Below are positions 9,085 through 59,599 of a DNA stretch of 64,000 nucleotides, piece by piece. The first letter of the stretch is position 1. The number at the start of each line of letters is the position of its first letter. The DNA comes from an uncultured bacterium. GTDB lineage: Bacteria; Patescibacteriota; Gracilibacteria; Absconditabacterales; Absconditicoccaceae. A model generated the notes under the pieces. The model did no database searches, was not told where the DNA came from, and worked only from the letters and a program-made list of their open reading frames with translations. A program made the translations under genes and the position numbers. The DNA is taken from the NCBI GenBank assembly GCA_947169045.1, contig CAMVOC010000002.1:17762-81761 (forward strand), in the 5' to 3' direction.

Positions 9085-9156
9085 GCTCCTGTAGTTCAAT
9101 GGATAGAATAGGCCCGTCCTAAGGGTTAGATGCTGGTTCGATTCCGGCCAGGAGTA
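9085..9156 (+). tRNA. tRNA-Arg (anticodon CCT, reads AGG)
   Basis: Cloverleaf by hand. Acceptor stem GCTCCTG/CAGGAGT (G-U closing pair). D arm GTTC..GAAT. Anticodon stem GGCCC/GGGTT with loop G-T-CCT-A-A. T arm GCTGG-TTCGATT-CCGGC. Discriminator A. No encoded CCA. Confidence 0.85.
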
Positions 9157-9240
9157 CATATACATCGCACAAATTACAAATTCTCTAGGAGAATATTCAC
9201 ATAATCAGCCTTCTCAACCTTTATTAAATAAAATCCAAAA

Positions 9241-26331: not shown

Positions 26332-28242
26332 TTATTTCACCCAAAACCACGTTGTCGCTACTTCATCTTTGGATAAATAATATGATTCACCACTGGTAAA
26401 CCTAAAACTTCCTTCCGTCAACGATCCATTCGTTAACGTAAAATTCACTCTTCCAACGCGTTCACCAGATGCCAAATCATACAGTTCACCATACCAAACG
26501 AAACTATTATCTCCGACATTAAACTGCGTAATAGACAGCTTTTTAATCTGATATCTCGTACCAAACAGTTCAAAATATCCAACTTTAAACGCCGAATTAT
26601 TCAGGGCCAAGACATCTACATACACTTTCGCAACTTTTTGACTAGACCCTTCAGCACTCACCTCTTCCATTGTCTTCACAATTTCATCTGGCAAATGCAC
26701 ATCATTAAGATTAAGGAACATCGTCAACCTCGTTTTGAGACGATAAAAGAAAATCGCCACTTCATACCTAGCAATTGGAGACGAGAAAGTCACGGTATCT
26801 TGCGGAGAAATCAAACTTAAATCAATTGCCTTCTGATAATATTCTACCCATCGTGGAGTCTTGCTCTCATCCAAAGCTCTACCCTCAACTAAACGCACGA
26901 GCATCGCAATAAATTCAGCTTTTGATACCGTCTGACGTGGATTAAATTTTCCATTCGAACCGTTCATCACCCCATAAAGACAAACATTATGAATAGCAGA
27001 AAAAAAAACTGAGCTCTCAGGGACGTCTGAAAACGTACAAGCGCTTTCATTTCTCACCGTCGTAAGGTCTACAGCTTCAGCAAAGGCGGATAACATTTTC
27101 GCCATCTGTTCACGCGTTACCGTCTCAAAAGGCATAAACGCTAGCACCTCATTATAGCTGGTAATACCTTTATCATACATCCACTTCACCGCCTCATGGA
27201 ACTCCGGATCATCCACTAGCGCCTGATTCCCAGCAATCAAACTCAGATCCAGACCCCCATCCCCCAATGCTACCGATCCTGTCTGACAAGTAGCACCTGA
27301 AGAGCAGAGAGCTTCATCAGGATTCTGTTGATCCCAAGTCGTTTGAACCTGCTGAAGCAAAGCATTCAAATCACCTTTTAATTTAGATAATTGCAATTCA
27401 CGATTACTAGATCCATCAGGGTTAATAATCAGATTTTTAAACCTATAAATAAGTAACGCCGTTTGCTCCCTCGTTAATGGCAAATCGATACGTGATAAAT
27501 TAGTATCATTTGTTACTTCCAAATATTTCATCTTCACGTAATATTCAATCCATCGCGGAGTCGACTGTTCATTGGACATCTTACCTTCAAGCATTCTCGT
27601 CAATACAGCCAAGATCTGTCCTTTCGTCAACGTATCATGAGGCATATACGCATGAGTTTTATCATTTCCTCTAAAGATTCCCCACGTACACACCTGAGTA
27701 ATCCAATCTGCAAGCGTAGGATCAAAAAGATCTTCATCCACAAAATGACAATCTAAAGCTGACTCAACCACAGGAAATTGCAATGTTTCAAACAGCTTTC
27801 CAATCAATTTTGCAGCTTCTTCTCTCGTTACATAATCTTTTGGACGATAATCTGCAACCACATCATATTTGGTAAGACCATTCGAATACATCCAATAAAT
27901 TGCTTCTTCCAATTCACTTCCCGTCCCCAGAGACGCTAATGCCGTCCCACGATAGAACGAATCACTAGAAGTCGTCTCAGTAGTAGTATCTAACGTTTCA
28001 AGTCCAGAACCGTCAACAGCAGCATTTTCATCAGAAGCATCTGCATCTCCCTGCTCAGCATCCTGCGAGAAATACTCCCCAACATTTTCCACAAAAATCC
28101 TCTCTTCTCAAGAAAGAATATACACCTGCTTATCAAGCAAATTCACCTGCACTTCATACTCCGCAAATCAAAAAGAACATAAGAAACAAAAAGCTGAAAT
28201 CCCAAGCAAAGAAGCCAAAGAAATCACAGAAGTACGCATCAT
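26332..28242 (-). CDS. Cell-surface protein with four SLH-like domains (636 aa)
   Basis: Signal peptide MMRTSVISLASLLGISAFCFLC. Repeated SLH-like units: AIYWMYSNGLT..YVTREEAAKL, FVDEDL..ADWITQVCTWGIFRGN, AVKWMYDKGIT..TVTREQMAKM, FSDVPESSVFFSAIHNVCLYGVMNG. Beta-rich C-terminus. Confidence 0.8.
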
Positions 28243-28497
28243 GTTATATGATATAAGAGAAAATAAAGAAAGGTTCACCGAATATTTTTTTTATAAATTT
28301 ACAGCTATTTTGCAAGGGGAAGTACCTCTAGAGACTCCATACCATATTTAAGGTTAATTTAAGGTAAAAAAGCTATACTACGATATTCCATCAAGATTTC
28401 CATAATAAAGTCAATATATTTTCCGGATATTCAGCATTCAATATCTTACTTTTACCCTGCATCAAAACAAAAGTCAAGCTTTTCTTCATCTCAGCTC

Positions 28498-35888: not shown

Positions 35889-36188
35889 ATGTTAACAATT
35901 AGACTTTCCAGACATGGAAGATCCAAAAGACCCTTTTACAGAGTAGTGCTCACCGAGCATACAAAGCCTGCAAAAAGCGGATATATGCAAGTTTTAGGTT
36001 CTTTCGATCCTCTCAAGCATACGTTTGAAGCAGATATCGAAACGATCAAAACATTAATCAAAAACGGTGCTAAACCAAGCGAAAGGATGGCAAAACTATT
36101 ATACCAAGCTACTAAAGACGAAACTTTCCAGAAATTTTTTGTAGAAAGAGAAAGAAAAGGAGTTACCAAGAAAGAAAAGAAAGACTAA
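35889..36188 (+). CDS. rpsP: 30S ribosomal protein S16
   Basis: MLTIRLSRHGRSKRPFYRVVL...GSFDP is the typical S16 N-terminus. Confidence 0.93.
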   Translation: MLTIRLSRHGRSKRPFYRVVLTEHTKPAKSGYMQVLGSFDPLKHTFEADIETIKTLIKNGAKPSERMAKLLYQATKDETFQKFFVERERKGVTKKEKKD

Positions 36189-36219: not shown

Positions 36220-36645
36220 ATGCCAGAAACCTTCAATCATATGTTTGATAAACCTGAAGATGTTATCCTTTTCGTATTGGCTGTCGCAGTATTAATTGTA
36301 TTTGCAGGATGTATCTATGCATTCTTTCGCGCAATCTTCTTCTTCATCTTTTCCAAAGGAGACGATTCAACCATAAAAAAAGCCCGAAATAGTATTAGAT
36401 ACATGGTAATTGGACTATTTCTTGTCATTATGCTATTATTCGTAGGACCTCAAATCCTCAGATTATTCAGACTACAAAATTATCAAGAATATACTGCAAA
36501 AAATGTCTTCGTCAAAATAGGAACAGTAATTACAGGAATCGGAGAAATCATCGGAATCATCGTAAGGGATTATCCAACGACCACAGGAATTGGATTAGAC
36601 GACAATCCTTCGTGGGATACAACATCAGTAAGTTATCAATTATAA
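36220..36645 (+). CDS. Hypothetical small membrane protein (141 aa)
   Basis: Intact standard-code ORF with two or three TM helices. No motif recognised. Confidence 0.6.
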   Translation: MPETFNHMFDKPEDVILFVLAVAVLIVFAGCIYAFFRAIFFFIFSKGDDSTIKKARNSIRYMVIGLFLVIMLLFVGPQILRLFRLQNYQEYTAKNVFVKIGTVITGIGEIIGIIVRDYPTTTGIGLDDNPSWDTTSVSYQL

Positions 36646-36753: not shown

Positions 36754-38085
36754 ATGAAAATACAATTATCCGAACATTTCAATTATAAAAAACTCCTAAC
36801 CTTCACAGCTCCTACAATAATTATGATGCTCTTTAATTCTATCTACTGAGTAGTAGATGGTTTTTTTGTATCAAATTACGTCTGAAAAGATGCATTCACA
36901 GCTGTAAATTTAACCTTTCCTGTGATTATGATCATCGCATCAATTGGGTTTATGGTAGGAAACGGAGGAAGCGCCTTGATTTCAAAAACACTTTGAGAAA
37001 AGAACATAGAATGAGCTAAAAAATATTTCTCAATGCTTGTATATTTCCTAATTATCTGCTGAATAATCGTAAGTATCGCCTGATTCTTCTTGATCGAGCC
37101 TATCATGACGATGTTAAAAGCGTCAGGAGACGTTTTAAGTAACTGTATTATCTATGGAAGAGTGCTATTCTTGTCATTGGTCTTTTTTATGCTTCAGCAC
37201 GTATTTCAGAACTTTTTTATAGTAAACGAGAGGCCTGATTTATGACTAAAAGTGGCAGTCATCATGTGAATCATGAATATTCTCCTAGATTATATTCTGA
37301 TTTATATATTAAAGTTATGAATTTTATGAGCTGCATTAGCCACCGCAGTAGCCCAATTCTTAGGAGCAACGATCCCATTGATCTACTTCATAACGAGTAA
37401 AACATCGAAATTAAAATTTGTAAAAACAAGACTAGAAGTATTACCTATCATAAAAAGCTGTATCAATGGAAGCAGTGAAATGCTGACTACGTTCTCTATG
37501 TCATTACTCAACATTTTATTCAATTACCAACTCATTAAATTTTTCGGCAATGACTGAGTTGTCGCCTATGGAATTATTATGTACGTAGGTTTTATCTTCA
37601 CGGGAATGTATTTAGGATATTCATTCGGAGTAACGCCTATCGTAGGATATAATTATTGAGCAAAAAATGCTAAAGAATTAAAAAATATCTTATTCAAAAG
37701 TAGTCAGATTTTATTTCTAGCTGCGATTATCCTGAGTTGCTCTGCTGAGATTTTTTCAGGATTTCTTGCAAAAATCTTCGTGAGCTATGATGCTAATTTA
37801 TTAGCATTTACAACCAAAGCCATCAGACTCTACGCTTTAGGATATATTGTACAATGGATAAATATCTTCTGATCAGCTTTCTTTACTGGTTTAAACAACT
37901 GAGTAGTATCAGCAACCATTTCATTTTTGAGAATGTTTGTATTCCAAATCATTATGATCTTTGCTATTCCCTATATATTTGGTAGTGAGTGGATTTGGGT
38001 ATCCACAACTTGTGCAGAGGTGCTTTGAGCTTGTGTGACTATCAGTTTCTTGATCGGAATGAGAAAGAAGTATGGGTATGTGTAG
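36754..38085 (+). CDS. MATE-family multidrug/oligosaccharidyl-lipid efflux transporter
   Basis: 444 codons with no TAA/TAG but 15 in-frame TGA (all codons checked). About 12 TM helices. N-terminal APTIIMMLFNSIY-G-VVDGFFV is typical of MATE. Because of the TGA density, the track shows no ORF on this strand at all. Confidence 0.85.
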
Positions 38086-38091
38086 ATTTTT

Positions 38092-38127
38092 GAAATTCTC
38101 CGAATTAAGGGGAACTTCTATTTTTTT
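38092..38127 (+). terminator. Rho-independent terminator after the MATE gene
   Basis: Stem GAAATTCTCC / GGGGAACTTC (8 of 10 paired) followed by T7. Confidence 0.6.
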
Positions 38128-38198
38128 AAAAAAGCAATAAAAGATCTATTTTATAATATCTTACTTGATTTTTTAATAAAGATTTCTATTATGAAATC

Positions 38199-38349
38199 GC
38201 AGATAATCAAGTAAAAAAGTATTTGGTCAAACCAAACGCTATTTTTTAACCAAGAAATTAAGCATCCTATTGATGGTTAATCTTGGTTGAGAGAAACTCG
38301 TTTTTGATCAAATACTTGATTATCTGCACCCATCATTAGGGTGCTTTTT
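38199..38349 (+). ncRNA. Candidate structured RNA / attenuator: long imperfect hairpin plus intrinsic terminator
   Basis: Perfect 15-nt arms GCAGATAATCAAGTA (38199-38213) and TACTTGATTATCTGC (38313-38327). The pairing extends through GTATTTGGTCAAA / TTTGATCAAATAC. Inner hairpin TTAACCAAGA / TCTTGGTTGA. Then GCACCC-ATCATTA-GGGTGC-TTTTT (38326-38349). Confidence 0.45.
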
Positions 38350-38364
38350 ATAACACAAAAAGTC

Positions 38365-38393
38365 CTTAATGCTTTTACATCACAAGCATTAAG
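38365..38393 (+). promoter_or_regulatory. Hairpin ending 1 nt before the methyltransferase start codon
   Basis: Perfect 10-bp stem CTTAATGCTT (38365-38374) / AAGCATTAAG (38384-38393). ATG at 38395. Confidence 0.5.
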
Positions 38394-38394
38394 C

Positions 38395-39258
38395 ATGAAT
38401 TACAAGCCGTTTGTAAAACGGGTCTGATGAAAAAGACAGTTATTAGAACAATTTAAAAACTTATATCCCAAAGATTTCAACGAATATTATGAACCATTCG
38501 TATGAGGGTGAGCGGTATTCTTCGATCTCAGGATCAATTTCTGATCGAAGTTTACAGCTCGCCTTTTTGATTTAAACGAAGAATTAGTAGTTACATATAA
38601 TATTGTGAAAAATGACACAGATAAGCTAATCCACTTATTAAAAATTTTTCAAAATAAACATTCAAAAGATTTTTTTATAGAAATTAGAAGCCGAGATAAA
38701 AATGCAAATTTCAAAAATGAAAAATCAAAAATAGAAAGAGCTGCAAGATTTATTTACCTTAACAGAACCTGCTTTAACTGAATGTACAGAGTAAATTCAA
38801 AATGAGAGTTCAATGTTCCATTTTGAAAATACTCTAATCCGAAAATTTGTGATGAAGAATGACTTTATTTAGCTAAAGAAGCATTACAAAATACTACAAT
38901 AGAAAATGCAGATTTTTCAATAGTAGAGAGACAAGCTAAAAAATGAGATTTTGTATATTTTGATCCTCCTTACGATGTTTTAACTGATACAGCGAATTTT
39001 ACAGATTATAATAAATGATGATTTGGTAGAGATGAGCAGGCAAGATTATTTAATACTTTTGATAAATTGAATAAAAAATGCTGTTATACAATGCTTTCAA
39101 ATCACAACACTCCATTTATTCGTGATTTATATAGGAGTTATAGAAAAGAAATAGTTTTAGCAAAAAGAATGATAAATTCAAATGCAACTAAAAGATGAGC
39201 GATTGAAGAAATCGTAGTTTTAAATTATCAAAATTTAAATGAAAAAGATAAAAAATAA
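38395..39258 (+). CDS. Dam-like (D12 class, alpha group) N6-adenine DNA methyltransferase
   Basis: MNYKPFVK-[CGG]-V-[TGA][TGA]-KRQLL (KWAGGK motif). EPFV-G-G-G-AVF. FIYLNRTCFN-G-MYRVN. FNVPF-G-KY. FDPPY (38962-38973). 13 in-frame TGA (all codons checked). TAA at 39256-39258. Confidence 0.9.
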
Positions 39259-40519
39259 CGATATAGCATGGGAAATATTATTTGATAGATTTAAAATTTT
39301 AGAACAGATAGAAAAAAATTGAATTTTTCAAATTACAGCAGATCAGATAAAAGAAGAAAGAGAACCAAGGTTAATGACAAAATTTGATCATGCTGATGAT
39401 TTACCAAAAATTTTTAAGAAAAACCATATTTCAATATTACCAATAAATCGTTGAACATATGTATTATGAAAGTTTTCAACCCATGAAAATATAAAATATG
39501 ATGAAAATATACCATTTCATAAAATAAATTTAAGACCAGACCTTGAAAGTTTAAATGTAAAAGATTTATTTTCAGAAGCTGTAGCATTAAATTATGCTCT
39601 TGCGACAGGTATGTTGAGAGAGATTGTTGGAGAAGATTGTGAATTAACCGTATCGTGAAAAATGTCCTCATCAAAATTTGAATTTAATGTACAAGATTCA
39701 ATTTATGAAAAAAAATATTTGATTGAGGTTGATAAAGCTCAAGTAGAAATTGATTGATGATATGAATCTACAAATAAATTAATGATTATTGAAGCTAAAA
39801 AATGAAAGTGTGATGATTTTATTATTAGACAATTGTATTATCCATATAGATTACGAAAAGAAAAAATAGATAAGGAAATCGTCCCAGTGTTTATGACAAT
39901 ATCTAATGGAATTTTTAGTTTTTTTATTTTTAAATTTGAAAACAAAAGTGATTATAATTCGATACGTTTAATAAAGCAAGTTAATTATGCAGTTGATTTT
40001 GAACCGATAACAAAAGATGATATAAATTATATAGTTAATAATATAAAGATTATAGATGAGCCAAGAGTTCCTTTTCCACAAGCAAATGATTTTGAAAAAT
40101 GTATCAATATTTTGGAAATATTAAAAAGTTGAGAAAAAACAAAAGATGAAATTAAAGATGAGTATAATTTTGTTATAAGGCAATCTCATTATTATGTTGA
40201 TGCTGATAAATATTTATGATTAGTTCAAGACAATAAGAGAACAGTTTACCTTACAAAATTATGAAAAAAAATAATTTCAAGTCCAAGAAAAGAGAGAAAT
40301 TTATTATTAATAAAACAGATATTTTCTCATAAAATTTTTATGGAAGCTTATAAATATAAAACCAAAAAATGAAAAATTAATAAAAACACCTTAGTAAATA
40401 TGATGAAATCTTGTGATTTATATAATATATGATCTGATGTAACATTTGGTAGAAGAGCATCAACAATTACTTGACGATTAAAATGGATTGATAAAACAAT
40501 AAACGAAAAAGAACTATAA
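39239..40519 (+). CDS. Putative type II restriction endonuclease, PD-(D/E)XK fold (426 aa)
   Basis: ATG 39239 overlaps the methyltransferase 3' end by 20 nt. 13 in-frame TGA and no TAA/TAG (all codons checked). VEID-GG-YESTNKLMIIEAKK fits D-x13-E-x-K. The C-terminal ~130 aa look like a helical/wHTH domain. No family name could be assigned from memory. Confidence 0.6.
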
Positions 40520-40636: not shown

Positions 40637-42118
40637 CTAATACACAATATATCTATCATCCAATCCCTCATAATAACTCTTAATTTTCAGCACGTCTCCC
40701 TTTCTCATCCCTTCCGCTTCTAATAACTCAATAAACCCTTTCTGCTGAAGTTGCTTCCAAAACCACATTTCAGCCTCATCATTTCCCCATGGAGTAATGA
40801 AAACCAGCCTACAAACCTCAGGATTTTGAACTAAATACACATTGAGATAAGTTGAAGTAACCTCATCCAAATAATCATGCTCAATCAGCCAAGGCTTCTC
40901 TTCTTCTGTCACATCTACAATCATATCTTCCTCATCAGCTTCAACAGGCAAAATCGGCTCAACATCCGGCATCTCTTGAGCTGGGAGCCTTTGCAAAAGA
41001 CGAGCTAAAGCTTGTTTCCACGCTTCTATTCCCTGCATTGTACCTGCAGAAGTAACAAAAAGATTATTCCTGATCAAATCTTCAGAAAGCTTAGCATACT
41101 GATGCTCTTCTAAAAAGAGAGAAAATCTGGCTACAAACTGCTTTTTGTACTCCTCCAAGACTTCATCATCATTAACCAAGTCGCACTTATTAAGGACAAA
41201 AAGAATCTTTTTGGAAATGAGTAATTCATCATTTGCATACACATTAAAAGCAATCAGATTTTCTTCCTGTTCAAAAGCAAAGTAATACTCTCCTTCATCA
41301 TCCAAAATCTTCTCCTCAATATACTCTTTAATCTCATCAAAAAGTTCCAAAGTCTCTCAAATCCCCTTATCATACCTAGATAAATCTGCAACCATAGCGA
41401 AAAGCCTCGCTTTCAGGACATGACGCAAAAAATCATTACCAAGACCTTTCCCATCAGAAGCCCCTTTAATCAATCCAGGAATATCTACCATATTAAACCT
41501 AAAATCCCCAACCGTAACAGACCCCAAATTAGGAATCAACGTCGTAAAAGGATAATCCGCAACCTTCGCTTTCGTCGAAGAAACACAGTTAATCAAAGAA
41601 GACTTTCCAACACTAGGATTTCCTATCAGTCCAACGTCTCCCAAGAGTTGAAGCTCTAAAATTAATTCTTTTTTATGACCAGGTTCTCAAAGGAGAAAAA
41701 AATTCGGGAATTGACGAACGGAATCCTTGAAATGAATGTTTCCCTTTCCACCAGAACCTCCTGGAAGTGCAGTCCATTCCTCGCCATCACGAGTAAAATG
41801 ATGTAATACCTTTCCAGTATCAGCATCTTTCACCAGTGTCTCTACTGGAACCGTTAAAATCAGATCCTCAGCATCTGCACCATATTGATCCTTCGTCCTA
41901 CCACTCTCGCCATTATCAGCTTTATAATTCTTTTTATACTTAAATTCTAGCAAAGTATCTTCATCCTTACTTGCCTGAAAAACAATGGAGCCACCACGAC
42001 CTCCATCTCCTCCATTAGGTCATCCACGAGGGATACCAGGAGCTCTGTATCCACTGGCAATTCCATTTCCTCATTTACCAGATTCTACCGTAATTTTAAC
42101 TTCATCATAAAATTGCAT
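40637..42118 (-). CDS. obg: GTPase Obg/CgtA with C-terminal OCT domain
   Basis: Track ORFs 40637..41350, 41357..41644 and 41687..41953, plus the N-terminus, share one frame (gaps checked). Motifs: GK-G-GNG, GGDGGRGGS, GNPSVGKSS, DIPGLI, NKCD. Confidence 0.95.
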
Positions 42119-42165: not shown

Positions 42166-44376
42166 TTAACTACCCTTGTTGCCCTTCTTGCGTGCCAGCG
42201 AAGCTAAAAACGCATCCATTTGTTTAAAATTATCAAAAGTGGAAACCCAAAACGTCAAATGATGCAACAAAAATTTATCCAATACAATTCATAAATTAAT
42301 ATTTTTCTCATTACGAAGCACTTCTAGCTGTTTTTCTTTATACTGACTATCCCATCCCGAAGACAATTCTGTAGCTTTCTGGCTTTCTCACTCATAATCT
42401 GTTTGTGCCAGGACATTATTATCCAGCTTAGCAATAAGCGATTGAATCACGACATTAGCATCGATTGACTGCCAAGTTAATAATCACTGAGCATCAGAAG
42501 AGTCCTCCTTGCTGGTTGAAGAATCTTGATTGGTAGATTTCACACTCGAATCCACAGTAAAGACAAACATATCCGAGAAATTAATGTTTTTCGTCGTGCT
42601 ATCCAGCATTTCTTTCTGTTTAGTCCAAGTTCAAAGTTCTCAGCTCTTATCTAACGCATCCAATACTCCATACACCTCAGAAATAATCTTCTCAAAACTA
42701 TACACAATAATTCCATTGGCATCAAAAAAGTGATTCGTAGTTGGAACTGCACAATATTTAATCCTCAAAATTGGTCAAAGTTCAGGATCAGTTTCTGGGT
42801 TTCGCAAAGGGGAATCCCGCATATTACAAGTACATGTTATCTTACAAGCTAATTCCTCATCAATCCTCAAATCATCACATTTTGCAAGACACTTTTTCGC
42901 TTCTTCAAGATTTTCCTGCTCTGCAGGCGAACGAATAGAAGAAACTTTTGCCAAGGCAGAACCCGCCGTTCAAAATTTATCCTGAAATTCAAACAAAAAG
43001 GTTCCATTTTCGGCAAACGTATACGTAGTCGAACCGTGATTATTGGTAACTACCACATCAGCATGATTAAAACTAATCGTTGCATCCACTGTTCCTGTCG
43101 TAGTTCTAGCTGGAGTATAGGTAATCGTCGCTTTAATCCTTCCAACCGTAGCAGTCGTTGGTTTGGTGGTATTCAACACATCGACCTGAGGCTCAGTAGC
43201 TAAAACATCCTGTACATACTGGAGAAAATCTGCGACTCCCACCTCATCCAAAGAAAGATCTCCTCATCACGACACCGTAGTTGATGAATCTTGATCAGTT
43301 TCATCCTCATCTTCATCCTCAGCACAAGGATCTTTACCAATATCAGACACTTGATCATCACCAAAAGAAGAAGGCTGACCTCCTTCTTGTGCGTCTAAAA
43401 ACGTAGTAAACTCGTCATCTCGTCCAAGTCAATTTCGTCATTCTGCAGCATCACCGCTCGAAAATGAAGTTGATGAAGTATTGTTATCCCCATCCCCTTT
43501 CGCATTCGATTCTAATGAATTCGTACCGCCATCAGAAGCCGAATTTTGAGATGTTTTATCCCCTTTATCTCAATCTTGTCCTTGTCCTCTAAAGATTGGC
43601 ATTTTATAGTATGCGATGACAAAGGATTCCTTAATATCTTCAAAAAAGACTTTAGCTAGCACATTAAGATCAAAAAGCAGATCAAAAGGAGAATCTTCCT
43701 CTGCATAAGCAGAGCTCCAATTCCAAAATTTATCCTGTCCAAGTTGAGCATTTTGTACTTGTTGGAGACGAGAAGTCTGCTGAATACCCACATTATACCA
43801 GTTATTAAATTTATCCCTACAGTCCGTCATCACATCTCCACGGAAAATAGTTCCCGTACCAGAACCAGGGTAATAACACCGATTAAAAGCTTTACAAGCA
43901 GTTTCTGCAGATGTTCTATTTTCCTTGAAGTCTATAGCATGAAAGGTATTCCTAGAAACCTGTAACGCCATATTGCTACGAAAATCATTATTAAAATAAT
44001 ACAAAATCGCAGTAATATCATCATTACTCAGAAAGCACTGTTGCAACGCTAGCTGATCCTGAATCATCTGAATCCCCCCAAGCGCAATATCTATATCAGC
44101 ATTTTCTATCTCTTGAACAATATCACTAAAAGGATTTTCTGGGAAATGCACATCATACACGCGGTCTAATCACTGGTTCTGTTTGGCTCTTTTGCTATCC
44201 AACGTATGCATCAACCATCTCGAAATAGCCAAATCTATCGTCAATTCCCCTTTCTCCCAAGTACTACCAATCGTACCAAAACCCAAAGAAACAGAAGCAG
44301 CAAAAACACCCCAACTCGTGAGGACTATCCCAGCACTAATACTCAAGATAAGTTTTTTAATTCGCTGCCTGTGCAT
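42166..44376 (-). CDS. Hypothetical secreted protein C (736 aa) with acidic linker, Ig-like beta domain and Cys-rich modules
   Basis: Track ORFs 44170..44376, 43570..44160 and 42970..43251, plus 42166-42969, share one frame. All gaps were checked and hold only TGA. N-terminal anchor ILSISAGIVLTSWGVFAASVSLG. TAA at 42166-42168. Confidence 0.8.
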
Positions 44377-45529
44377 TTCTCAATTTTTCATATAAAGCAT
44401 AAAAAGGAGACAAGAGTTTGCTTGCATCATCTCTCAGTCGTAGCAACGCCTCTTGATACCAAGCTAAACCAACATGGACAGGATAAGAAGCCGAGAATTC
44501 CTGCCATTCACGCAAAGCTGTTTGTAACGCCTGTTTTAATTCTTGCCTTTGTTGTTGCATCACACTCAATTCTAAAGCATATTGATCTGCAAGAGTTTTA
44601 TCTGTATCCTCTTTAGATATCGCCTTAGACTCTGCCTGTGTAGCCAGCCATTGTGTGTACACATCTACAAATACACTATAAACCAGATATTCATTCGTAA
44701 TAAAAGAAACAAAATCCTGATCCATTTTCCCTGCTCATGTTCCAATCCAATTAGGAAGAGGATAATTAGCATTTTGCGTCTCTTGAGGGACTTTAAGTTT
44801 TTTAACCTTTTCCAGACGTTCCTTCATCTCTTCCTGATTATCAGTCAACATCTCTTTAGTATCTTCATACAGTTCTGAAACACCATAGAGCTTAGAATCG
44901 ATCGGCACCGAAAAATACGTTTTAAAGAAATCCTTGAACCTCGTATCTTCATCCGGAAAATTCTTTGGATCTAACACGTCCAAACTACTCGCCCATTTTA
45001 TAACAAAAACTTCATTCATCAAAACAGTAAAAATATTTCAAGCAAGATGAGCGACATCGCAATTATTCGTTTGTTCTCCAACCTTACACGAATCTTTTTT
45101 TTGAAAAGCAATAAAATCCCAAGCCTCCTCAGTGAACGAATCAAACCAGGATTTCTCTTTTCGCTCCCAGTCTTCTCGAAACTTATCCTGAAACAACAAA
45201 CCTACACCATCAACCTCCTCTCCCCACCGAGACGTACATAACGCCAAAACAAATAAAGAGTTTTTGAAATCCCAACGAGCATTTTCTCCTGAAAACACAA
45301 GAGCATTTTCTTCTGAAAGAGCTCCACTACAATACTTAGATACAAAGTCTTTTTTTGAGCTAGTAGTAGAAAGAGAACTATACACATTCCCCAATTGCGT
45401 CGCAAACCCTGGCCCCTCTTCTGCAAAAACACTGCCTCAAATAAAGCAAAAAGAAAATAATATCGCTACCACACACATCAAAAAACCACCTAGCACCTTT
45501 CATCATGTAGAAGGAAACGTAGTCCTCAT
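44357..45529 (-). CDS. Hypothetical secreted protein B (about 390 aa)
   Basis: Track ORFs 45038..45394, 44735..45022 and 44357..44725 share one frame. The upstream extension gives MRTTFPSTGGKVLGGFLMCVVAILFSFCFIGGSVFA, a signal peptide. The start could instead be ATG 45566-45568. Overlaps gene C by 20 nt. Confidence 0.72.
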
Positions 45530-45597
45530 AGCAACAAATCTGTGATAAAATAAATTTTTATAGTTCATAACCGATAATCAAATAAATAAAGGGTATA

Positions 45598-47190
45598 TTA
45601 ACATTTCACATTACAAGCATCATTTCACTTATTACTAGCCTGATACTTACAAATCTCTACCAGCTTTTGACACATACCAGACTGTTTGTTTTTGATTAAC
45701 TCATCAAGCTGATGTATCTGATCTACTATCGCATGGAAAAGCGGAGTTTGTACCGAGGTATCCACTGCTATACTCATTTCTTTCGTCTGACGAGCCAATT
45801 CATCCGCATCATTCACAGAGACAATGAGTTGTTGCTGTAAACCGTCTTTAAAATCTTTCGAATATTCTATACCAAACTGTTGTAGATACTGACGTCTCTC
45901 TTCAGGAGACAACTGACTAAACAATACATCTGCTCATTTAACATCATTATTCATCTCTCTCAAGAAATTCCATCAATCTTCTACACCAGCGATAAATTCA
46001 CTAATTCCAGACGACGAAGTCTCAACGACAGAAGAAACTCTTTTTTTAGTATCATTTCGAGCCTTTTTCCAGCCTCACAAAGGAGTAATTAACGATCTCA
46101 AACCTCCAAGCTCACGAGTTGTCATTTGTGTTGTATCGATTCCATATACTGTTCTTAATTGTTGTAACTCTACATCTGTAAAATACACATTTCCACCCAA
46201 AAATCCTAAAGGTCAAAGCGTATCCCACCCAAGTTCTCATCTCTTACCTCACAAAATCGCATACATCAATCTCTTCGTCGCAGAACTAATCGTCTGCCAA
46301 GACTTAGTTGCAGCAGTTCAAATCTGAGAAATCTTTCCTAAATCTCTCAAGGTTTGCTTTCGAAAATTATTACAAGACTGATACAATCCCAGCGTACTAA
46401 GACCTCCCCATAAGAAACTATAATCATCATCAATTTGTTGTATCCATTCAGGATCAAATCCCGCATTAAATAACGCATTAAAATCTCATTTCAAAACATA
46501 ACTTCCACCCCAAGTAACAAACTTTTTCATAGAAGCGTTCATCCTAATCAATGCGGACAAAATACCAAGATAAGACACATTATGAGTCTCTTGAACACCC
46601 GTAAATAAGCCCAAATCCTGATATTTCTTAACCACAGTATACAATTTTTCTGGATTTTCTAAGTTAGCCATGATACGCGTCTGTTTTCAGAGATAATAAG
46701 AAATCTGCATCAACTTAGTCTCTATCTCTAATAATGTCTTATAATCACGCACCATCGGCCTATCCTCAAAAAGTAGTCTAAGACCATCCAAATTACTCCC
46801 TATCACCGACAGAGCCGACAATCAAACGAGCACCGCAGTCGTAGTCGAGGACTGAAGAACTCTTAAAACGTTATTGTACAAAGTAGTTAAAATAACATCT
46901 ACAACAGCATTCTTAGTTTCTGGATGAAGATCCAAGACTTTTGAAGTAAAAAGCCCGAGAGGATTGACCGTTACATTAAACAGCTTCTCTCCCAAGACTC
47001 CACCAAGCAAAGTTTGAGCCATCTCTGCCTGAAAATCAAAATACAGTTGCATGGCAGGAGTAGGTCAATGACACACATCAGGAGCATCAGCACTGACATC
47101 TGCAGCATCAACAACAGAAAAAAAAGGCTGAATCAATCAACAGAACAAGACACACAATAAAAATACTGATTTTGTAAGAGATTTTTTCAT
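45598..47190 (-). CDS. Hypothetical secreted protein A (530 aa)
   Basis: ATG at 47188-47190, signal peptide MKKSLTKSVFLLCVLFC. Track ORFs 46822..47052, 46486..46671 and 45625..45924 are joined only by TGA (every gap codon checked). Cys-rich C-terminal tail. TAA at 45598-45600. Confidence 0.8.
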
Positions 47191-47255
47191 CTTTTAAGTA
47201 TAAACGTTTTGTAAAAAAATCACAATCTCAGCAATACAAAGCCAAAAAAAATCTA

Positions 47256-48444: not shown

Positions 48445-49806
48445 ATGAAACGACTTAGAATTCTACATCCTTTCTTTCATTTCCTCATTATTCTCTTCGT
48501 CTTTTTCCTGACGTACAAATTGAGACTTCGAGGAGATTTTTTCCGTGATGTCCCATTCATCAACATCCAAGAACTTCAGATTTTTGCGCTTTGTTCTGCC
48601 CTTATTTTCGTAACGCGAGGACGAATCAAAAAACTCTACCAACTCACAACCCTCTCCGAAACGACCATTAGAATCCTTCCAAAAGTACGAAGTTATCGAT
48701 TTATTTCTATGACATTTATTTCTTACTTCGGACAAGGGTTCTTATTTATGCGAGGAGTATCCAGATTTGTCATCATTTCTGCAGGAATTATCAGCTTTAT
48801 TTTACTGTTTTTCTTCGACCAATTACGAAATTTCATAGATTTTAAATTACAGCAAAAAGCAGGGAAAAAAATTCTGATTATCTCCAATAACCTCATAGAC
48901 AACGTAGAAATCCTCCAAACCATCAAGCAAAACTTCTCTTTCCCGACAGAATTTGCACAATATCAAGACATCGACAGTATCCAGCTTACCAATTACGCAA
49001 TCACCGTAGCTATAGGAACTTTTGAAAGAAACGATTTACAAGCCCTCTTCGAAAAAGTAAGATTCAACCCTACAAGATTTTTCCATATTTCAGAAGGGTA
49101 TTTCCTAGAAGACGTCGTCTACATCCCAGAGAAACTCGACAGTATCATCGCTATGGAGTACAAACATTCCAAATTAGACGGACGATCTCTCGTTATCAAA
49201 AGACTTTGCGACATTTTTGGATCCATCTTCGGAATTATTATTGGACTAATTCCTATGCTGATTATCGCAATACTTATCAAAATAGACAGTCCAGGACCAG
49301 TAATTTATTCTTCCAAAAGAGTTTGAAAAGGCGGAAAACTCTTCACGTTTTATAAATTCCGTACTATGTACACAGATTGCTGTACAGGAGTTGGAAATTC
49401 GAAGGCTGACAAGCTCTATCAAGACCTGATAAATTCCAGCAAAAATACCAGAGATAAAATTATGCCAAAAATCCAAAATGATCCAAGAGTAACCAAATTA
49501 GGAAGAATTTTACGTAAAACTTCTCTAGACGAACTGCCTCAATTATTTCAAGTATTAGTCGGTTCAATGTCTCTAGTAGGACCACGCCCTCATTTGCCAA
49601 ATGAAGTCGAAAAATACGAACCACGAATGAGGAGAGTATTGAGTATTAAACCAGGAATTACCGGATATGCACAGGTATTTGGAAGAGATAGCCTACCATT
49701 TGAAGAGGAAGCAAAACTCGATCTCCACTACATTCAGAATCGATCTATTTTTATGGATATTTACGTAATTTTTGCTACATTTTGAGTCGTATTCAAATGA
49801 AGATAA
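48445..49806 (+). CDS. Polyprenyl-phosphate sugar phosphotransferase (bacterial sugar transferase family, WbaP/EpsL-like)
   Basis: Several N-terminal TM helices. KFRTM, DELPQL, LVGPRP, KPGITGYAQV. Track ORFs 48445..49326 and 49366..49785 share one frame. TAA at 49804-49806. Confidence 0.9.
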
Positions 49807-50843
49807 ATGCGCACCTCGCTATCAAAGGAAAAAAAATACTAATTATCGGCAACCGAAGTTACAAAAACCTAGGTGATGAGCTGATTGTTTTATGAACAAC
49901 AAAAACGCTCCTACAACAAAAAGACCCAAAAGAATGCCCAGAAATTACCATCTCTTGTTTCAATCCTCAACGACTAAAAAAGTTCTTTTCACAGTTTTTC
50001 ACCACGAACGAACTGAGCAAAATTACATTCATTCATGAGCTCCCCAAAGGGGTAAGATCAGCCTTTTATTGGCTTAAAAATTGAGGAATCAAAGAGCTAA
50101 AACAATTCTGGCAAACAGATACAATCATCCTATGAGGAGGAGAGATCCTGACTGAAGAAAGTCCTAGTGCATATCGATATCGACTCGTCAGTATGCGACC
50201 ATTTTTAGTCGCTAAATGCTTCCACAAAAAAAAATATCTATACATTATGGGAGGCGTCCAAACTCCAGCAAGTCCACGCAAACTAAAACTTCTAAAATTC
50301 CTCCTAAATCGCACTACACACCTATATCTTCGTGACACCCAATCCGTCAACGAAATAAAAAAACTAGGCTACCAAAATGCTGAATTTTTCATGGATACGA
50401 GTTATTTTGCCTATGACTGGACTGAGAAGACACAGCAATCCACCAAAGACAAGTACATCATCGTAAACCTCAATAAAAACGGAGAACAGTTTATAGAAAG
50501 CCTCATCTCCGACATTTCTAAATATCTAAAACAAGGATACACTGTCTATTACGTCCCCGTTGCAAAAGGAGCAAATCAATATTACCAAGACATCCACTAC
50601 AAAAAAATACTAGAAAAAAAGCTGAATCATCATCTCGAAACACTAGATCGAGAGGAAGATTTCAACCATTTCGTACAACTACTTAAAGGAGCAGAAATCG
50701 TCATAAGTACGAGGCTACATTTATTTCTTATTGCTTCATTTCTTAGAATTCCGACAAAAGTATATCCATACCAAAAAAAGATTGTAAAGATGAAGGAGCT
50801 TATTTCATCCCTGCCAATATCCCGCTCCACAACCCTTGAATAA
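49797..50843 (+). CDS. Polysaccharide pyruvyl transferase (CsaB-like)
   Basis: ATG 49797 overlaps the upstream gene by 10 nt. ILIIGNRSYKNLGDELI, IL-G-GGEIL, STRLHLFLIA. Track ORF 50193..50843 is the C-terminal part. Confidence 0.75.
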
Positions 50844-51723
50844 TCTGCCATTTTCACTTTCCTCAGAATCTCAAAGCCTTCAGACTAAGCCACACAATAC
50901 ACCCAGGCAACCCTACCAAATAAAACTGCACTTTGTTCCAAAAAGTTGCATGTTTTTTTAAAAAGAAAAACCAATTTCTTGCTTTTTGACGAGCTTGTTC
51001 ATAAGTTCCAATCCACGCCTGTTGTAAAATGGTCTTCTCCCTTTCATAATGTCTCACTGGCAAATCCAAAAAAGAAAAAAATCTGACTCCTTTTTCTCGT
51101 AATGATAAGGTAAAATCTAAATCCTCTGCAATCCGCGCAATTTCTTCATCATATCCCATCTGTTTAAAAAGCTTTGCATCACCTAACAATCAATTCCCAC
51201 TAAACATGCGAATCTCACATGAGGAATGATTCTCAGCACGACAAACAATAGCTCTATTCTGCCAAAAATCCCACTTCAAAAAACCTCTATTTTGAATCTC
51301 TCAGGTCTCACGATACTGTAACGTCGAACAAATCACAACTTCAGTTCAGCATTCTTTTTTCTTTTGTTCATAATGCTCAACAGCTTGTTGTAAATAATCA
51401 GTATAAAAGCCATTATCATCATCAAAAAGCTGAATAAGTTTCCCATGTGCCTGCTTTATTCAAATATTTCTAACATAACTTGCTCATCAAGAATGTTTTC
51501 CTGCAAAAACCAAGTGAAAACGCCCAAAAAACTGTTTTTCCCACGTGTGTAATTTCGCATCTAAAGCATCCAGTATCGCATGCTCCTCCTGATCCACGAC
51601 CAATACTACCTCAAAATCTTGAAAAGTCTGTTGCTCCAAGCAACGAAAAATCCTCTCCAAATGCGGAATACTCGCCTCATTTCCTCTAGTTCCAAAAACG
51701 ACTGAAACTTGCATAATCCTCAA
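50800..51723 (-). CDS. Family 2 glycosyltransferase
   Basis: Track ORFs 51487..51723 and 50863..51189 share one frame (gap checked). SVVFGTRGNE, VVLVVDQEE, G-G-ASYVRNIG, FDDDN. Read-through of TGA at 50863 and 50854 reaches TAA at 50800-50802. Confidence 0.8.
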
Positions 51724-56414: not shown

Positions 56415-57965
56415 TTAAAAAACTTGTAACCTTATTCTTGATTTTATCGCAGGAATCGACTGATACCAAAATGGTGAGACTTTAATATCTACGCTTCCCA
56501 CCTCTGCATATTCTGAAGAAATCAGTCTCCTTGCTTCATCAACAGACAATCCTGAAATTAAATTTTTCAAAGAAACCAAAAGACGATTACCATCTTGAGC
56601 AAAATCATATCCTTGTAAAACATCAATTTTAGTAGTAATAATATACACATCTCCTTGTTGCCTATAAGCTCCCGTATTTGAAGAAGAAGTGTCCTTAATA
56701 AACGAAAGACTTCAGGTATCCACAGATAAAAATTTCTGCTGTGATGAAGAATGTTCATCCAAATAAGTATGAAACGCAGCGAGAAGATCCTTTCACAAAA
56801 CATAATGAAACGTATAAGTTACATAAGCAGAACCTTTAATTAAAGAGGCATCTGCACCTGTCTGTCGATCTCCCGTAATTGAAGTAAAAGTCGTACGAAT
56901 CAAAGAATCAAAAGGCAAAAGAATTCCATCCTGAATTCAAAGATTTTTTGCAACAACATCAAGTTTCTGGTGATAAGCTTGCTCCACCAGTTTCCCAGTA
57001 AGAGCTGCAATATCCTCTTGAGTCACGGATCCTACCGATGTTGTAGATCCTCCATAAAATTCCCCTACACTTACCCCTCGAAGTTGTTTAAATGAAGCCG
57101 ATTCTTCCAAATTCCTTATCCACATACGAGTTCACTCTCAAACATTTCCTCTAATTCCTACCACTTCTCCATTCATATCTTTATCCATCGCCTGCACCAT
57201 TATTTCTGTAACGGAAGGATTTTCTCTACTTCCTGTCGCTACTTCAAACCCATTCAACGCCCTAAAAATAACTCCATCTTCCGTAACAAATTGAGTATTC
57301 GCAACTAATGAATACGAGATTGGCAACGTATTAAACACCTGAATTTTTCATTTTGCAGGATTAATAAAATATTGCAAATTCGCCACAGAAATCGTCAAAT
57401 CATACTTATAATCCAATGAAGCTGTGTAATAAGGAATACTTAAAAACCTAGTATCTTGCACATACTCCGTATTTTCATGAGGATAATAGCGAAAATTATA
57501 AATAACCTGTTCTCTTTCTTCTGCCGGATATAAATACACAACAGCACTCGGGAAAATCAAAGAAACAAAAGCAAAAAGGAAAACCACTCCCACCAAAACC
57601 TCTAATCCAATCATCAATCCAAACAAATATTTTTTCGTCTCATACGCATGCAAATGAAACTTTTTAATATCAAACAAAAAAAGAGAGACAATACTGAAAA
57701 GCTTTTCAATATTCCTTTGCTTAATCACTTCCACTTGCAACCCTACTTGACGATAATATTCCTGACTTTGGTTATTTTTTGCAGAAAAAACCGCTTGTAG
57801 AGAGCGATCCTCTACAATTTCTTTCAACTGTTTTCCTCGCCATAAATTATCAAATAAAGGATGTTCTGGTTCTATAAAAATCTCCACTTCTCTTCACTTA
57901 GACACCTTTTCCAAAGTGGTAAAAATCTTATAGATACTATCCATTTTTGTAAAATAGAGTTTCAT
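56415..57965 (-). CDS. Hypothetical membrane-anchored protein (516 aa), weak baseplate-J-like stretch
   Basis: Track ORFs 57348..57887, 57138..57338, 56937..57125 and 56415..56648 share one frame (gaps checked). The N-terminus extends through TGA 57894 to ATG 57963-57965. One TM helix. ANTQFVTEDGVIFRALNGFEV...VQAMDKDMNGEVVGIRGNV-G-EGT is reminiscent of Baseplate_J. Confidence 0.7.
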
Positions 57966-58030
57966 TGTTCCCCCACTATAGGAAAAGTCTCTCAAAAATC
58001 CAGTCTATTTCTTTTCAATAAATAACAACA

Positions 58031-59599
58031 CTAAGGATGACTTTTTACGAACTGCCAATATCCTCGAATTCCTAACCCCACAAAAATTACCACCAAAAGA
58101 TACTGTTCAAACTGTCATTGAGCAACAATGGAGATAGACCACTGATTTCCTACGTTTGCAAACCAAAAAATGAGCGACATTAAAAGTTTTACAGGAACAA
58201 AAACAAAAGAAAAAGCTGAAAACAACAACGAAACAGCACCCATTACCGTAATAATTGGCACCAACGGAACAATGAAAAAATTTAAAAGAATGCCTACCAA
58301 ATTTACTCAATTCATAAAAAAGAGTAAAACAGGCGCCGTTCCTAAACTAGCTCAAAGAGTCGCCAATACCGTCGTCCTAATTCCTTCCCAAAAATGAGAA
58401 TCAGCTTTTTTCTTTTTTTGTCCAAGAGAAGTACGAGAGTCAGCTTTCAATCTCCTCTTTTCATCCCGTTTTCCAACTAACACAATTCCAATAATAGCAC
58501 CAAAACTGAGTAATAAGCCAACATCATACACTAAAGCGAAAGGGTTAAGAAAAAGCAATCCTATCAACGAATATCTCATCAAACGCCAAATGGAAATTTC
58601 TCTTCCTCGAAATAGTGCCATCAACGTCAATCCTCCCATAATCGCAGCTCTCACAACACTAGAATCCCCACCACAAAGCAAAGCATACAGCGAAATCATG
58701 ACAATAATCAAGCCATTTCTAATCTTTACCGGCACCCACATCAACAAAAAATTAAGCAAAACGACCACCATCGCAATATTTCCCCCACTAACAGCAATAA
58801 TATGTACCGTCCCACTCGCCACAAAAGAATCATAAAGTTCAGGAGGTAATAAGGATTTATCCCCTATCAAAAGTCATAACAAAAGCCCAGCATATGCCGT
58901 ACTACCATACACTGACTCCACAAAGCTCTGTAATTTTGCACGCAAAGAATCAATCCATCCTAACGTAAAATTCACGCTTGTTTTCCCCATCATAGTAGCT
59001 CTTCCTCCTTCACGCGTTACCAATAAACTATTTTTCTCATACAAAGATCCATCTATGCGCTTCATAAATAACCATTTATCATAATTGAACTGATATTGCC
59101 AAAATTCTGGCTTCCATATCCTCATTTCTCCAAGTCCAAAAACTTTTTCATCATTTCTTTCAGAAACCGAAGCAGACAAAAAAAGCTGATCTCCCAAATG
59201 ATGTGCTTGATTTGACGTGAGTCTCCAAATCTTCCCTTGCTCATCTTGTACCAGATACGTTTGCCATTTTTGTGTATCTACCACCTGCACAAATCCGTTA
59301 AAGGATTTCCATTTTGCAAGGTCTGCTCACATTTCTTGCTGTTGCACCTGATGACCTCCACGCATCCAAACATGAACCTGCACAACACCAAAAGCCAAAA
59401 AAACGCTCAAAGTAACCAGCAAAATCGTTCTAAAGCATCCCCTTACCAAAGAAAAATTTCAACGATATGAAATAAAAAATCTAACCAAAACAATAACACT
59501 CAAAAGCACAATCAAACCACAAGAAATCAAAAGGCTAACCTTCCGATCAAGCCACATCGTATTTACAGCAATTGAGAGCAAAAAAGCCAAAAATCACAT
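58031..59599 (-). CDS. comEC: DNA internalisation competence protein ComEC/Rec2 (no beta-lactamase domain)
   Basis: Track ORFs 58874..59290, 58352..58870 and 58115..58300 share one frame (gaps checked). GTVHIIAVSGGNIAMV is the competence-domain motif. Polytopic. The second codon is TGA. TAG at 58031-58033. Confidence 0.85.

Follow-up and report, generated by a model that had tools for sequence, protein, structure and literature searches.

Introduction

Sets of large exported proteins encoded together have been described in several bacteria. In the tripartite alpha-pore-forming toxins Hbl, Nhe, Ahl and Smh, the components are paralogues that share a ClyA-like fold with a hydrophobic head and act together extracellularly, and in the Mycoplasma pneumoniae P1 operon and the PrgA/PrgB/PrgC set of pCF10, large exported proteins encoded side by side make up one cell-contact surface structure. 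To our knowledge, almost nothing is known of the surface molecules of the Absconditabacteria and Gracilibacteria, which occur widely in the guts and mouths of animals and in anoxic waters and depend on other bacteria. Here, we analyzed three adjacent genes, designated A, B and C, in a 64,000-nucleotide (nt) stretch of DNA (referred to as the window) from an uncultured member of the Absconditicoccaceae (assembly GCA_947169045.1, contig CAMVOC010000002.1, forward-strand positions 17,762 to 81,761), the source of which was a ruminant gastro-intestinal metagenome. An earlier sequence-only reading had proposed that the trio, lying immediately upstream of obg, encodes secreted proteins without recognisable domains that form a cell-surface or host-attachment complex of an episymbiotic or predatory CPR (Candidate Phyla Radiation) cell. 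Export of A, B and C and a functional link among them are, in our view, highly probable.

The trio resembled Hbl, Nhe, AhlABC and SmhABC, members of the ClyA superfamily, in comprising three adjacent genes for three predicted Sec-exported, mainly helical proteins, but differed from them in that A, B and C are mutually unrelated, carry many conserved putative disulfides and include, in C, a long disordered spacer. No HBL or ClyA match was obtained in Pfam (E <= 1 or <= 0.1), in PDB profile searches with A, B and C or in a Foldseek search with the C model. By analogy, the encoding of several large exported proteins together is also reminiscent of the P1 operon and PrgA/B/C; unlike those sets, the trio lacks an LPXTG or membrane anchor and is chromosomal, clade-wide and unlinked to a type IV secretion system (T4SS) locus, and no similarity to them emerged in general Pfam and PDB searches, none of which was aimed at these operons and in which the fold was compared for C only. 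The spacing C496-x3-C500...C511-x3-C515 on two consecutive predicted helices of C recalls the twin-CX3C/CHCH hairpins of small Tim proteins, in which a helical hairpin is stapled by two disulfides; in C the disulfide pairing is putative, and the motif, unlike that of the small Tim/CHCH proteins, is a sub-motif of a larger bacterial, apparently extracytoplasmic domain with no sequence or fold match to them. Finally, the trio shares predicted export, acidity and fast evolution with SLH-anchored S-layer proteins, yet A, B, C and their orthologues have no SLH domain, and conserved cysteines are atypical of S-layer proteins.

Conservation of the trio and its genomic neighborhood

The A-B-C order was kept in 12 of 12 lineages examined, all of which are UGA-recoded, at pairwise identities of 22-51% (22-26% for the most divergent). 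The end of B overlapped the start of C by 17, 20 or 23 nt in every lineage and always in the same relative frame, and the gap between A and B was 20-34 nt in most lineages. Relatives were collected with a word-indexed protein search, which returned a handful of true relatives, each on a contig carrying A, B and C in order, and with a scan of GTDB representative genomes, which added further loci of the same arrangement in 'Candidate division SR1 bacterium MS502-49', a 'Candidatus Absconditabacteria' metagenome-assembled genome (MAG) and several 'Candidatus Peribacteria' MAGs. In addition, a HMMER search with C yielded 642 proteins at E <= 1e-3; the C orthologue set consisted of 43 full-length clusters (50% identity level) among the best 150 of these 642 matches, and most of the remaining matches within the best 150 were unrelated proteins sharing only an Ig-like repeat with C. 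The same order, with A and B beside C, was also seen for three C orthologues that are among the most divergent found by that search, and the only named member of the C family is a 'hypothetical protein' of an SR1 bacterium. The sequence-only reading had proposed a comparison of gene neighborhoods across SR1/Gracilibacteria as a check and lack of co-occurrence as evidence against it; the trio stood together throughout.

The genes flanking the trio differed between lineages and comprised a tRNA synthetase, RRF/YidC, SecA, DHH/DHHA1 or, at one locus, a VirD4-like gene. Synteny of the flanks was retained among the window, L002 and L007 (handles beginning with L denote individual trio-bearing loci), and obg followed C in the window and L007 only, so that the adjacency to obg noted in the sequence-only reading proved to be local and a functional connection with obg was rejected. 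No fourth conserved partner gene was found across the examined loci. A low-complexity Gly/Val/Ala/Thr/Asn-rich protein, without signal peptide or Pfam match, was encoded directly upstream of A in two distant lineages only (L001 7468-8460 and L009 3976-5151), not in the window.

Because order, spacing and the B/C overlap were kept at 22-30% identity despite the reshuffled flanks, we regard the trio as a functional module, and the comparison argues that A, B and C are a true functional unit. The same conservation of order, spacing and overlap of the B stop with the C start makes it very improbable that the genes encode three independent secreted proteins, adjacent without joint function; the three families do lack any mutual sequence relationship, and nothing else positive was found for that explanation. 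Descent from a mobile element or secretion apparatus, with the trio serving as T4SS surface proteins, a prophage receptor-binding set or a plasmid module, would fit the VirD4/TraG-like gene convergent to the trio in L014 (5382-7862, minus strand; a DUF8128 protein with a weak TraG-D_C match, as in VirD4-like coupling proteins), a weak T4SS-pilin-like gene 6 kb off in the window, and the importance of T4SSs in Patescibacteria (PMC12857230). However, L014 was the only one of the 12 loci with a T4SS-type neighbor, the other 11 being flanked by unrelated housekeeping genes; a PHROGs scan of the C orthologues gave no family, and relatives of the trio were found neither among IMG/VR viral contigs nor by tblastn against INPHARED phages and PLSDB plasmids. 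Furthermore, no integrase or repeats were noticed at the loci, and the synteny retained among the window, L002 and L007 also speaks against mobility, which leaves this explanation scarcely credible.

Genetic code and annotation

A, B and C were intact only under genetic code 25, in which UGA encodes glycine. Open reading frames (ORFs) of >= 100 amino acids (aa) in the window summed to 28,781 aa under code 25 versus 11,635 aa under code 11, and in-frame TGAs numbered 13 in A, 5 in B (6 in the longer ORF) and 13 in C (14 in the longer ORF). Each gene of every orthologous trio contained 1-40 in-frame TGAs; the TGA columns of A, B and C were mostly Gly in orthologues, and columns A291, A522 and C579 were all-Gly in every lineage. 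The four in-frame TGAs of obg were located in its glycine-rich Obg motifs, which we take to be those of E. coli ObgE. No tRNA-Gly(UCA) gene was found within the 64-kb window, the sole tRNA gene of which is tRNA-Arg(CCU) (9085-9157, plus strand). The CPR-type host of the sequence-only reading was correct, in that the source is a UGA-recoded patescibacterium with relatives labelled SR1 or Absconditabacteria.

Annotation with the wrong code hides such genes. Code 11 split A, B and C into 14 + 6 + 14 = 34 pieces, so that the splitting had been rightly anticipated and its extent ('more than 9 pieces') understated, while public calls of the same genes with code 4 show Trp at every UGA-Gly position, which explains why database matches to them appear as '97% identical'. 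Since Trp was also frequent in the C orthologue consensus at the UGA-Gly columns of the window, the C family is apparently confined to recoded genomes. Code 11 was used to annotate the L001 MAG (L001 8702-10297), in which gene A was consequently cut to 404 aa (P0005, LBU27_08310) while both B and C fell into fragments. Several trio-bearing MAGs (among L007 and L010-L012) are labelled 'Candidatus Peribacteria' though their genes require UGA=Gly.

Predicted export and absence of described relatives

N-termini were scored by a rule requiring a hydrophobic core between a basic n-region and a small-residue cleavage-type site; of 30 full-length orthologues of A, B and C, 29 carried such a Sec-type signal, in agreement with the earlier claim that each protein begins with a signal peptide. 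A cytoplasmic location, which the sequence-only reading had named as evidence against its proposal, was not predicted for A, B or C. No second membrane segment was found in the orthologues of A, B and C. Neither 35 orthologues nor the 43 C orthologues had an LPXTG-like motif or a C-terminal hydrophobic segment, and a lipobox ([LVI][ASTVI][GAS]C) at the signal-peptide end was seen in 0 of the 35 and 1 of the 43. SLH domains were likewise missing from A, B, C and their orthologues, whereas the identical search detected one in another protein of the window. Conserved cysteines numbered 4 in A, 4 in B and 11 in C.

None of the three proteins matched Pfam or NCBIfam, for which libraries the phrase 'no recognisable domains' holds, and Pfam searches of every orthologue, including the 43 of C, returned only sub-threshold noise (DUF4254, QRICH1, DUF6400). 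PDB searches with profiles of 4, 6, 7 and 43 sequences gave nothing credible (best matches TIM, geranyl transferase and the like, E > 0.03). Clear homology to a characterised system, which would have spoken against the sequence-only reading, was therefore not detected in Pfam, NCBIfam, PHROGs, PDB profiles or, for C, Foldseek, and the searched literature contained no description of the A, B or C families. Paralogy among the three was rejected (hhalign probabilities of 2.3% for A/B, 1.9% for A/C and 0.6% for B/C), and no paralogues were found elsewhere in the window. Judged by the libraries searched, we rated the trio as apparently lying outside every known kind of system.

Architecture of protein C

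C was very acidic (110 Asp plus Glu versus 66 Lys plus Arg). Its structure was predicted with AlphaFold from a database copy with Trp at the UGA positions and 43 aligned orthologues; the model had a mean predicted local distance difference test score (pLDDT) of 58, with a usable N-domain and a moderate C-domain. It placed the helical N-terminal part at about residues 45-250 and disorder at residues 253-482. The N-terminal domain was predicted to be all-helical, with pLDDT mostly 84-96 over approximately residues 90-210 (one 10-residue block at 79 and one at 59), and contained conserved cysteines Cys114, 161, 167 and 186 as well as near-invariant D215 and N219 ahead of an invariant cluster of aspartates (Table 1). 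A Foldseek comparison, proposed as a check by the sequence-only reading, found no structural neighbor of the C model in PDB (best E 0.79) or BFVD; in the model, the N-domain thus appears to represent a new fold relative to these two databases.

The N-domain was followed by the long acidic low-complexity linker that the sequence-only reading had noted, which holds the acidic run AEDEDEDETDQD and varied from 146 to 301 aa across orthologues. Mean identity was 13% in the linker, 25-36% in the two domains (36% in the C-domain) and 16% in the tail. Eleven cysteines of C were conserved in >= 42 of 43 orthologues; the eleventh, Cys351, stands unpaired within the otherwise poorly conserved linker, and a role in an intermolecular disulfide may be inferred for it. 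The C-domain was the most conserved part of C, and its model showed helices 484-500 and 505-516, a beta hairpin (517-521/538-542) and a helix 561-577 at pLDDT 56-84. Here, instead of the 'Cys-rich repeats' of the earlier description, we found a single twin-CX3C motif plus two further cysteines, C517 and C542, together with the motif LGPILxIKYCAVPT...KSGELG...KQKEMLDS. The variable tail ended in a helix of ~50 residues (683-733, pLDDT ~80-86). All sequence strings quoted earlier (the A tail, the acidic linker, the Ig-like stretch and the C cysteine string) were present in the translations.

The Ig-like beta module noted in C was, by sequence, a real bacterial Ig-like repeat of ~73 residues; it was not part of the conserved family and represented an insertion into the linker in one sub-lineage. 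It was present in the window lineage, L007 and two fragments, and absent from L002, L006, L009-L012 and 43 of 43 other full-length orthologue clusters. With phmmer the module matched 94 repeat proteins, in which it occurs in up to 32 tandem copies within giant proteins, at 34-50% identity over 19 repeats and ~50-53% for the closest copies. Although C itself had no Pfam match, the Ig-like region included, the label is reasonable because the matching giant proteins exceeded the Pfam cut-offs for Big_3_2 and Big_9 as whole-protein scores, where no single stretch passed alone; in addition, the repeat profile weakly touched designed Ig domains in PDB (E 0.002-0.005). The pLDDT of < 50 in this region of the C model is attributable to the gapped alignment there. 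C aa 410-482 thus corresponds to one copy (38-53% identical) of the repeat of giant Big_3_2/Big_9 surface proteins such as P0009, which also carries NPCBM and dockerin domains; unlike those proteins, C has a single copy in one sub-lineage, and the conserved domains of A, B and C have no counterpart in them. The closest copies sit in giant proteins (P0009-P0157) without Trp at invariant Gly columns, which points to ordinary-code bacteria, whereas only 2 of 96 repeat proteins had many Trp at these columns and look UGA-recoded (three more had a single Trp). Because the closest copies show no UGA recoding, capture from ordinary-code gut bacteria is possible, and the domain may have been acquired from co-resident members of the gut community.

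Proteins A and B

A is a predicted exported, mostly helical-looking orphan, with orthologues in at least nine lineages at 23-43% identity. The layout of its signal peptide recurred in 9 of 9 full-length orthologues, and its conserved cysteines were Cys40, Cys273, Cys514 and Cys526. The Cys-rich tail described in the sequence-only reading was present and formed a conserved terminal cysteine loop, C-x2-Q-x2-NKG-x2-(G)C, 2-4 residues from the C-terminus, in which C514, Q517, G522 and C526 were invariant. A conserved segment rich in Ser, Thr, Ala, Leu and Val (Table 1) had a Kyte-Doolittle value of 1.4-1.7 in 7 of 8 lineages, though not in L012, and could represent a helix buried in the fold or an element that interacts weakly with the membrane; among the three proteins, only A had such a second hydrophobic segment. 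B had conserved cysteines at 67, 98, 148 and 157 and the invariant C-terminal motif YPxHxG...YQE...PFYxLYEKLRNVQ. An AlphaFold model of B from 3 sequences was all-helical and of low confidence (pLDDT 44), for which reason its Foldseek list was meaningless.

The mildly hydrophobic helix of A is among the features that could suit a released attack factor, a three-part lytic or pore-forming agent that would be comparable in function to the tripartite alpha-pore-forming toxins, be secreted into the medium or onto prey and help a predatory cell drain its prey. The trio is co-transcribed by arrangement and encodes predicted secreted, largely helical proteins, its orthologues bear no retention signal, and cultured relatives are predatory or parasitic (PMC8080830). 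Such an agent is nevertheless quite unlikely: A, B and C are not paralogues by the hhalign comparison, neither Pfam models nor PDB entries of HBL or ClyA were matched, the hydrophobic segment of A is weak and lost in L012, and many conserved putative disulfides and a disordered acidic spacer of 150-300 aa are not features of known pore formers.

Evolutionary tempo

The trio diverges much faster than its housekeeping neighbors. Between the window and L002, identities were 77% for Bac_transf and 68% for DHH versus 40%, 31% and 35% for A, B and C; between the window and L007, 84% for Obg versus 51% for C; and between the window and L009, 68% for Obg versus 33% for A, 31% for B and 25-49% for C. 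Between two strains, the ratio of nonsynonymous to synonymous polymorphism (pN/pS) was 0.16 for A and 0.10 for C (aa 10-591), which indicates that A and most of C are probably under purifying selection. For B, compared with L013 4662-5837 (two strains), pS was 0.048 and pN 0.031, giving a pN/pS of 0.65 from small counts; B was 3-5 times more diverged between the two strains than A or C and had an indel or replaced block near aa 300-320, a combination that suggests a recombination patch. Among four strains, 14 of the 26 variable residues of C lay at or after residue 600, within the last 137 residues (binomial P = 6e-5). Diversifying selection was rejected as a conclusion from strain-level ratios of nonsynonymous to synonymous substitution (dN/dS), as the substitutions were too few to decide and only the tail clustering was significant.

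These rates bear on the possibility that the trio is a housekeeping envelope machine. It would then be a clade-specific substitute for, or supplement to, the biogenesis of the cell wall or envelope, such as an enzyme of wall remodelling and its regulators, without any role specific to hosts, and the invariant Asp cluster of the C N-domain would be a catalytic or metal site. The setting agrees with it, since the trio lies next to core genes (obg, DHH/DHHA1, RRF, YidC, SecA and tRNA synthetases in different lineages) and seems to be inherited vertically, with identities that drop in step with those of the neighboring genes; so do the invariant D228, D232 and D236 and near-invariant D215 and N219 within a confidently folded domain, as well as the purifying selection on most of A and C. 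However, the searches run revealed no similarity to hydrolases, transglycosylases or enzymes of any other fold, and true housekeeping genes beside the trio evolve far more slowly than it does. A wall enzyme would, moreover, be unusual in having an acidic spacer that is long and disordered, a tail that varies between strains and an Ig-like insertion. We therefore judge this explanation unlikely, though a real contender.

Proposed role of the trio

We favor the reading that A, B and C are a co-produced extracytoplasmic assembly specific to UGA-recoded Patescibacteria (the Absconditabacteria/SR1-Gracilibacteria group), one that is probably surface-exposed and in which C, at least in part, faces the environment; we put its likelihood somewhat short of even. 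The reading builds on the co-occurrence of the three genes in a constant order with the B/C overlap, on the predicted export of all three products, on their conserved cysteines and on the fast divergence of the trio. Exposure of C is suggested by the hypervariable spacer, which accepted a domain of surface proteins, and by the strain-variable distal tail. Genomic co-occurrence and the B/C overlap point to a physical complex of A, B and C, and the overlap of 17-23 nt in all lineages to translational coupling of B and C; the products may in addition be exposed at the surface and act in contact or adhesion, with host attachment a plausible candidate. The cell-surface complex of the sequence-only reading is accordingly supported in part, namely as to the functional unit, the predicted export and the absence of characterised relatives.

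Under the favored reading, the operon would be transcribed from upstream of A, and B and C would be made in matched amounts because ribosomes ending B terminate 17-23 nt past the C start codon. The three proteins would cross the single membrane via Sec and fold outside the cell, where conserved disulfides would stabilise them. C would be a dumb-bell in which the helical N-domain and the twin-CX3C C-domain are joined by the long flexible acidic spacer; its conserved parts would dock to A, B or the wall, and its poorly conserved helical tail, like the inserted Ig-like domain in the window sub-lineage, would be presented outward to meet other cells or the envelope matrix.

Several points weigh against this reading. 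Signal peptides were judged by simple rules instead of SignalP, and because 35 orthologues had no LPXTG motif, lipobox, SLH domain or C-terminal transmembrane segment, the products could simply be released. The support for binding among A, B and C consists of genomic co-occurrence and the B/C overlap; no conserved adhesin-type domain is present in the trio, the Ig-like module being recent and local. Between strains, most of A and C is probably under purifying selection. Finally, the location amid core housekeeping genes, with seemingly vertical inheritance, would fit a housekeeping role in the envelope just as well.

Electron microscopy of the relative Vampirococcus showed a single membrane and a thick fibrous layer filling the host contact zone, and its genome holds many orphan genes (PMC8080830); the fibrous coat makes a role of the trio in such a layer plausible. 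More specifically, the trio might be the core of an unseen extracellular apparatus of UGA-recoded Patescibacteria, stapled by disulfides and including at least one new fold, that forms or organises the host-holding fibrous layer. This is a tentative and, as a whole, rather doubtful proposal. If true, the reach and specificity of the apparatus would depend on the spacer and variable tail of C, and the spacer could capture adhesion domains from neighboring bacteria. A module that is predicted to be exported, occurs in every sampled lineage of the clade and has no relative elsewhere is of a kind rarely met among the numerous orphan genes of these bacteria, and it offers a concrete candidate for envelope or host-contact biology specific to the clade. 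Secreted orphan families are, however, frequent in this group, and the function of the trio is an inferred one. In the few co-cultures that exist, the three proteins are defined targets for antibodies, proteomics, labelling in cryo-electron tomography and structure determination.

Gene models and features of the locus

The window was AT-rich (GC content 36.6%), and the same-strand, tightly packed arrangement noted earlier (a gap of ~70 nt, an overlap of 20 nt and 47 nt to obg) was measured as 68 nt between A and B, 20 nt between B and C and 47 nt from the end of C to obg; the shared strand, left unstated in that reading, is the minus strand. B most likely starts at M26 (45529), which lines up with orthologue starts; M13 (45568, 402 aa), from which one public annotation begins the gene, is a possible alternative and would reduce the A-B gap to 29 nt. 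By comparison with orthologue N-termini, C most likely starts at M19 (44376), the seeming conservation 5' of this start being the B C-terminus read in another frame. The ATG of C sits within the AAT-GCA (Asn-Ala) codons of the B tail ...LRNAQ, and since AAT-GNN supplies this ATG, the final codons of the B C-terminal motif are doubly constrained. The promoter-like site upstream of A had 9 of 12 consensus matches, weak evidence given that the scan overall was not enriched versus shuffles, and no RNA elements were found around the operon by Rfam.

Table 1. Features of the A-B-C locus in window coordinates
Feature	Position	Strand	Basis or remark
Gene A	45598-47190	-	530 aa, ORF under code 25
Gene B	ORF 44357-45604, gene 44357-45529	-	390 aa from M26
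Gene C	ORF 42166-44430, gene 42166-44376	-	736 aa from M19
obg	40637-42118	-	downstream of C
B/C overlap	44357-44376	-	20 nt
Promoter-like site TTGTGA-17-TATACT	47197-47225	-	consensus scan, directly upstream of A
A signal peptide, aa 1-29, MKKSLTKSVFLLCVLFCGLIQPFFSVVDA	47104-47190	-	basic n-region, hydrophobic core, VDA site
A conserved mildly hydrophobic Ser/Thr/Ala/Leu/Val-rich segment, aa 112-137	46780-46857	-	Kyte-Doolittle
A C-terminal cysteine tail, CQKLVEICKYQASNKGNDACNVKC	45601-45672	-	conserved loop at end
C signal peptide, aa 1-27	44296-44376	-	rule passed by 10/11 full-length C orthologues
C N-terminal all-helical domain, ~aa 45-262	43591-44244	-	AlphaFold
C EDSPFDLLFD with invariant D228, D232, D236 (motif DSPxDxxxD)	43666-43701	-	orthologue columns
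C disordered S/N/E/D/T-rich linker, aa 263-484	42925-43590	-	pLDDT <50
C conserved linker motif D-x-E-F-x-x-F-L	43387-43425	-	C orthologues
C Cys351, lone invariant cysteine within linker	43324-43326	-	Cys in 43/43 orthologues
C bacterial Ig-like repeat, aa 410-482	42931-43149	-	insertion into linker
C conserved C-domain, aa 485-620	42517-42924	-	most conserved part of C
C twin-CX3C (C496, C500, C511, C515), CLAKCDDLRIDEELACKITCTC	42826-42891	-	on two consecutive predicted helices
C variable helical C-terminal tail, aa 621-736	42169-42516	-	mean identity 16%

Other genes of the window

Four genes, at 26332-28278 (minus strand), 49782-50843 and 48445-49806 (both plus strand) and 50800-51723 (minus strand), encode an SLH-domain protein that carries a signal peptide and a CsaB-like polysaccharide pyruvyl transferase with, next to it, a Bac_transf sugar transferase and a GT2 glycosyltransferase. 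Together, these would be ingredients of SLH/pyruvylated wall-polymer anchoring, apparently unused by the trio. On the far side of obg, 36754-40519 (plus strand) contained a MatE transporter, a Dam-type D12 methyltransferase (38287-39258) and a DUF6996/DUF6997/DUF7226 protein (39239-40519), which separate obg from a pair of small conserved genes. This pair is ~0.8 kb from obg in L007, with one 218-aa ORF between, and the segment in the window looks like an inserted restriction-modification-like island. Also encoded in the window are a 141-aa hydrophobic protein (36220-36645, plus strand; sub-threshold match to T4SS_pilin, PF18895, E 1.3e-4; 91% identical in L007) and, adjoining it, a 99-aa basic protein (35889-36188, plus strand; 85% identical in L007).

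Three further large orphans without a Pfam match were encoded at 21120-25286 (plus strand; 1388 aa, K/E-rich and without a signal peptide), 7188-8882 (minus strand; 564 aa, secreted) and 56415-57995 (minus strand; 526 aa with an internal hydrophobic segment). A ComEC-type competence protein was encoded at 58031-59599 (minus strand).

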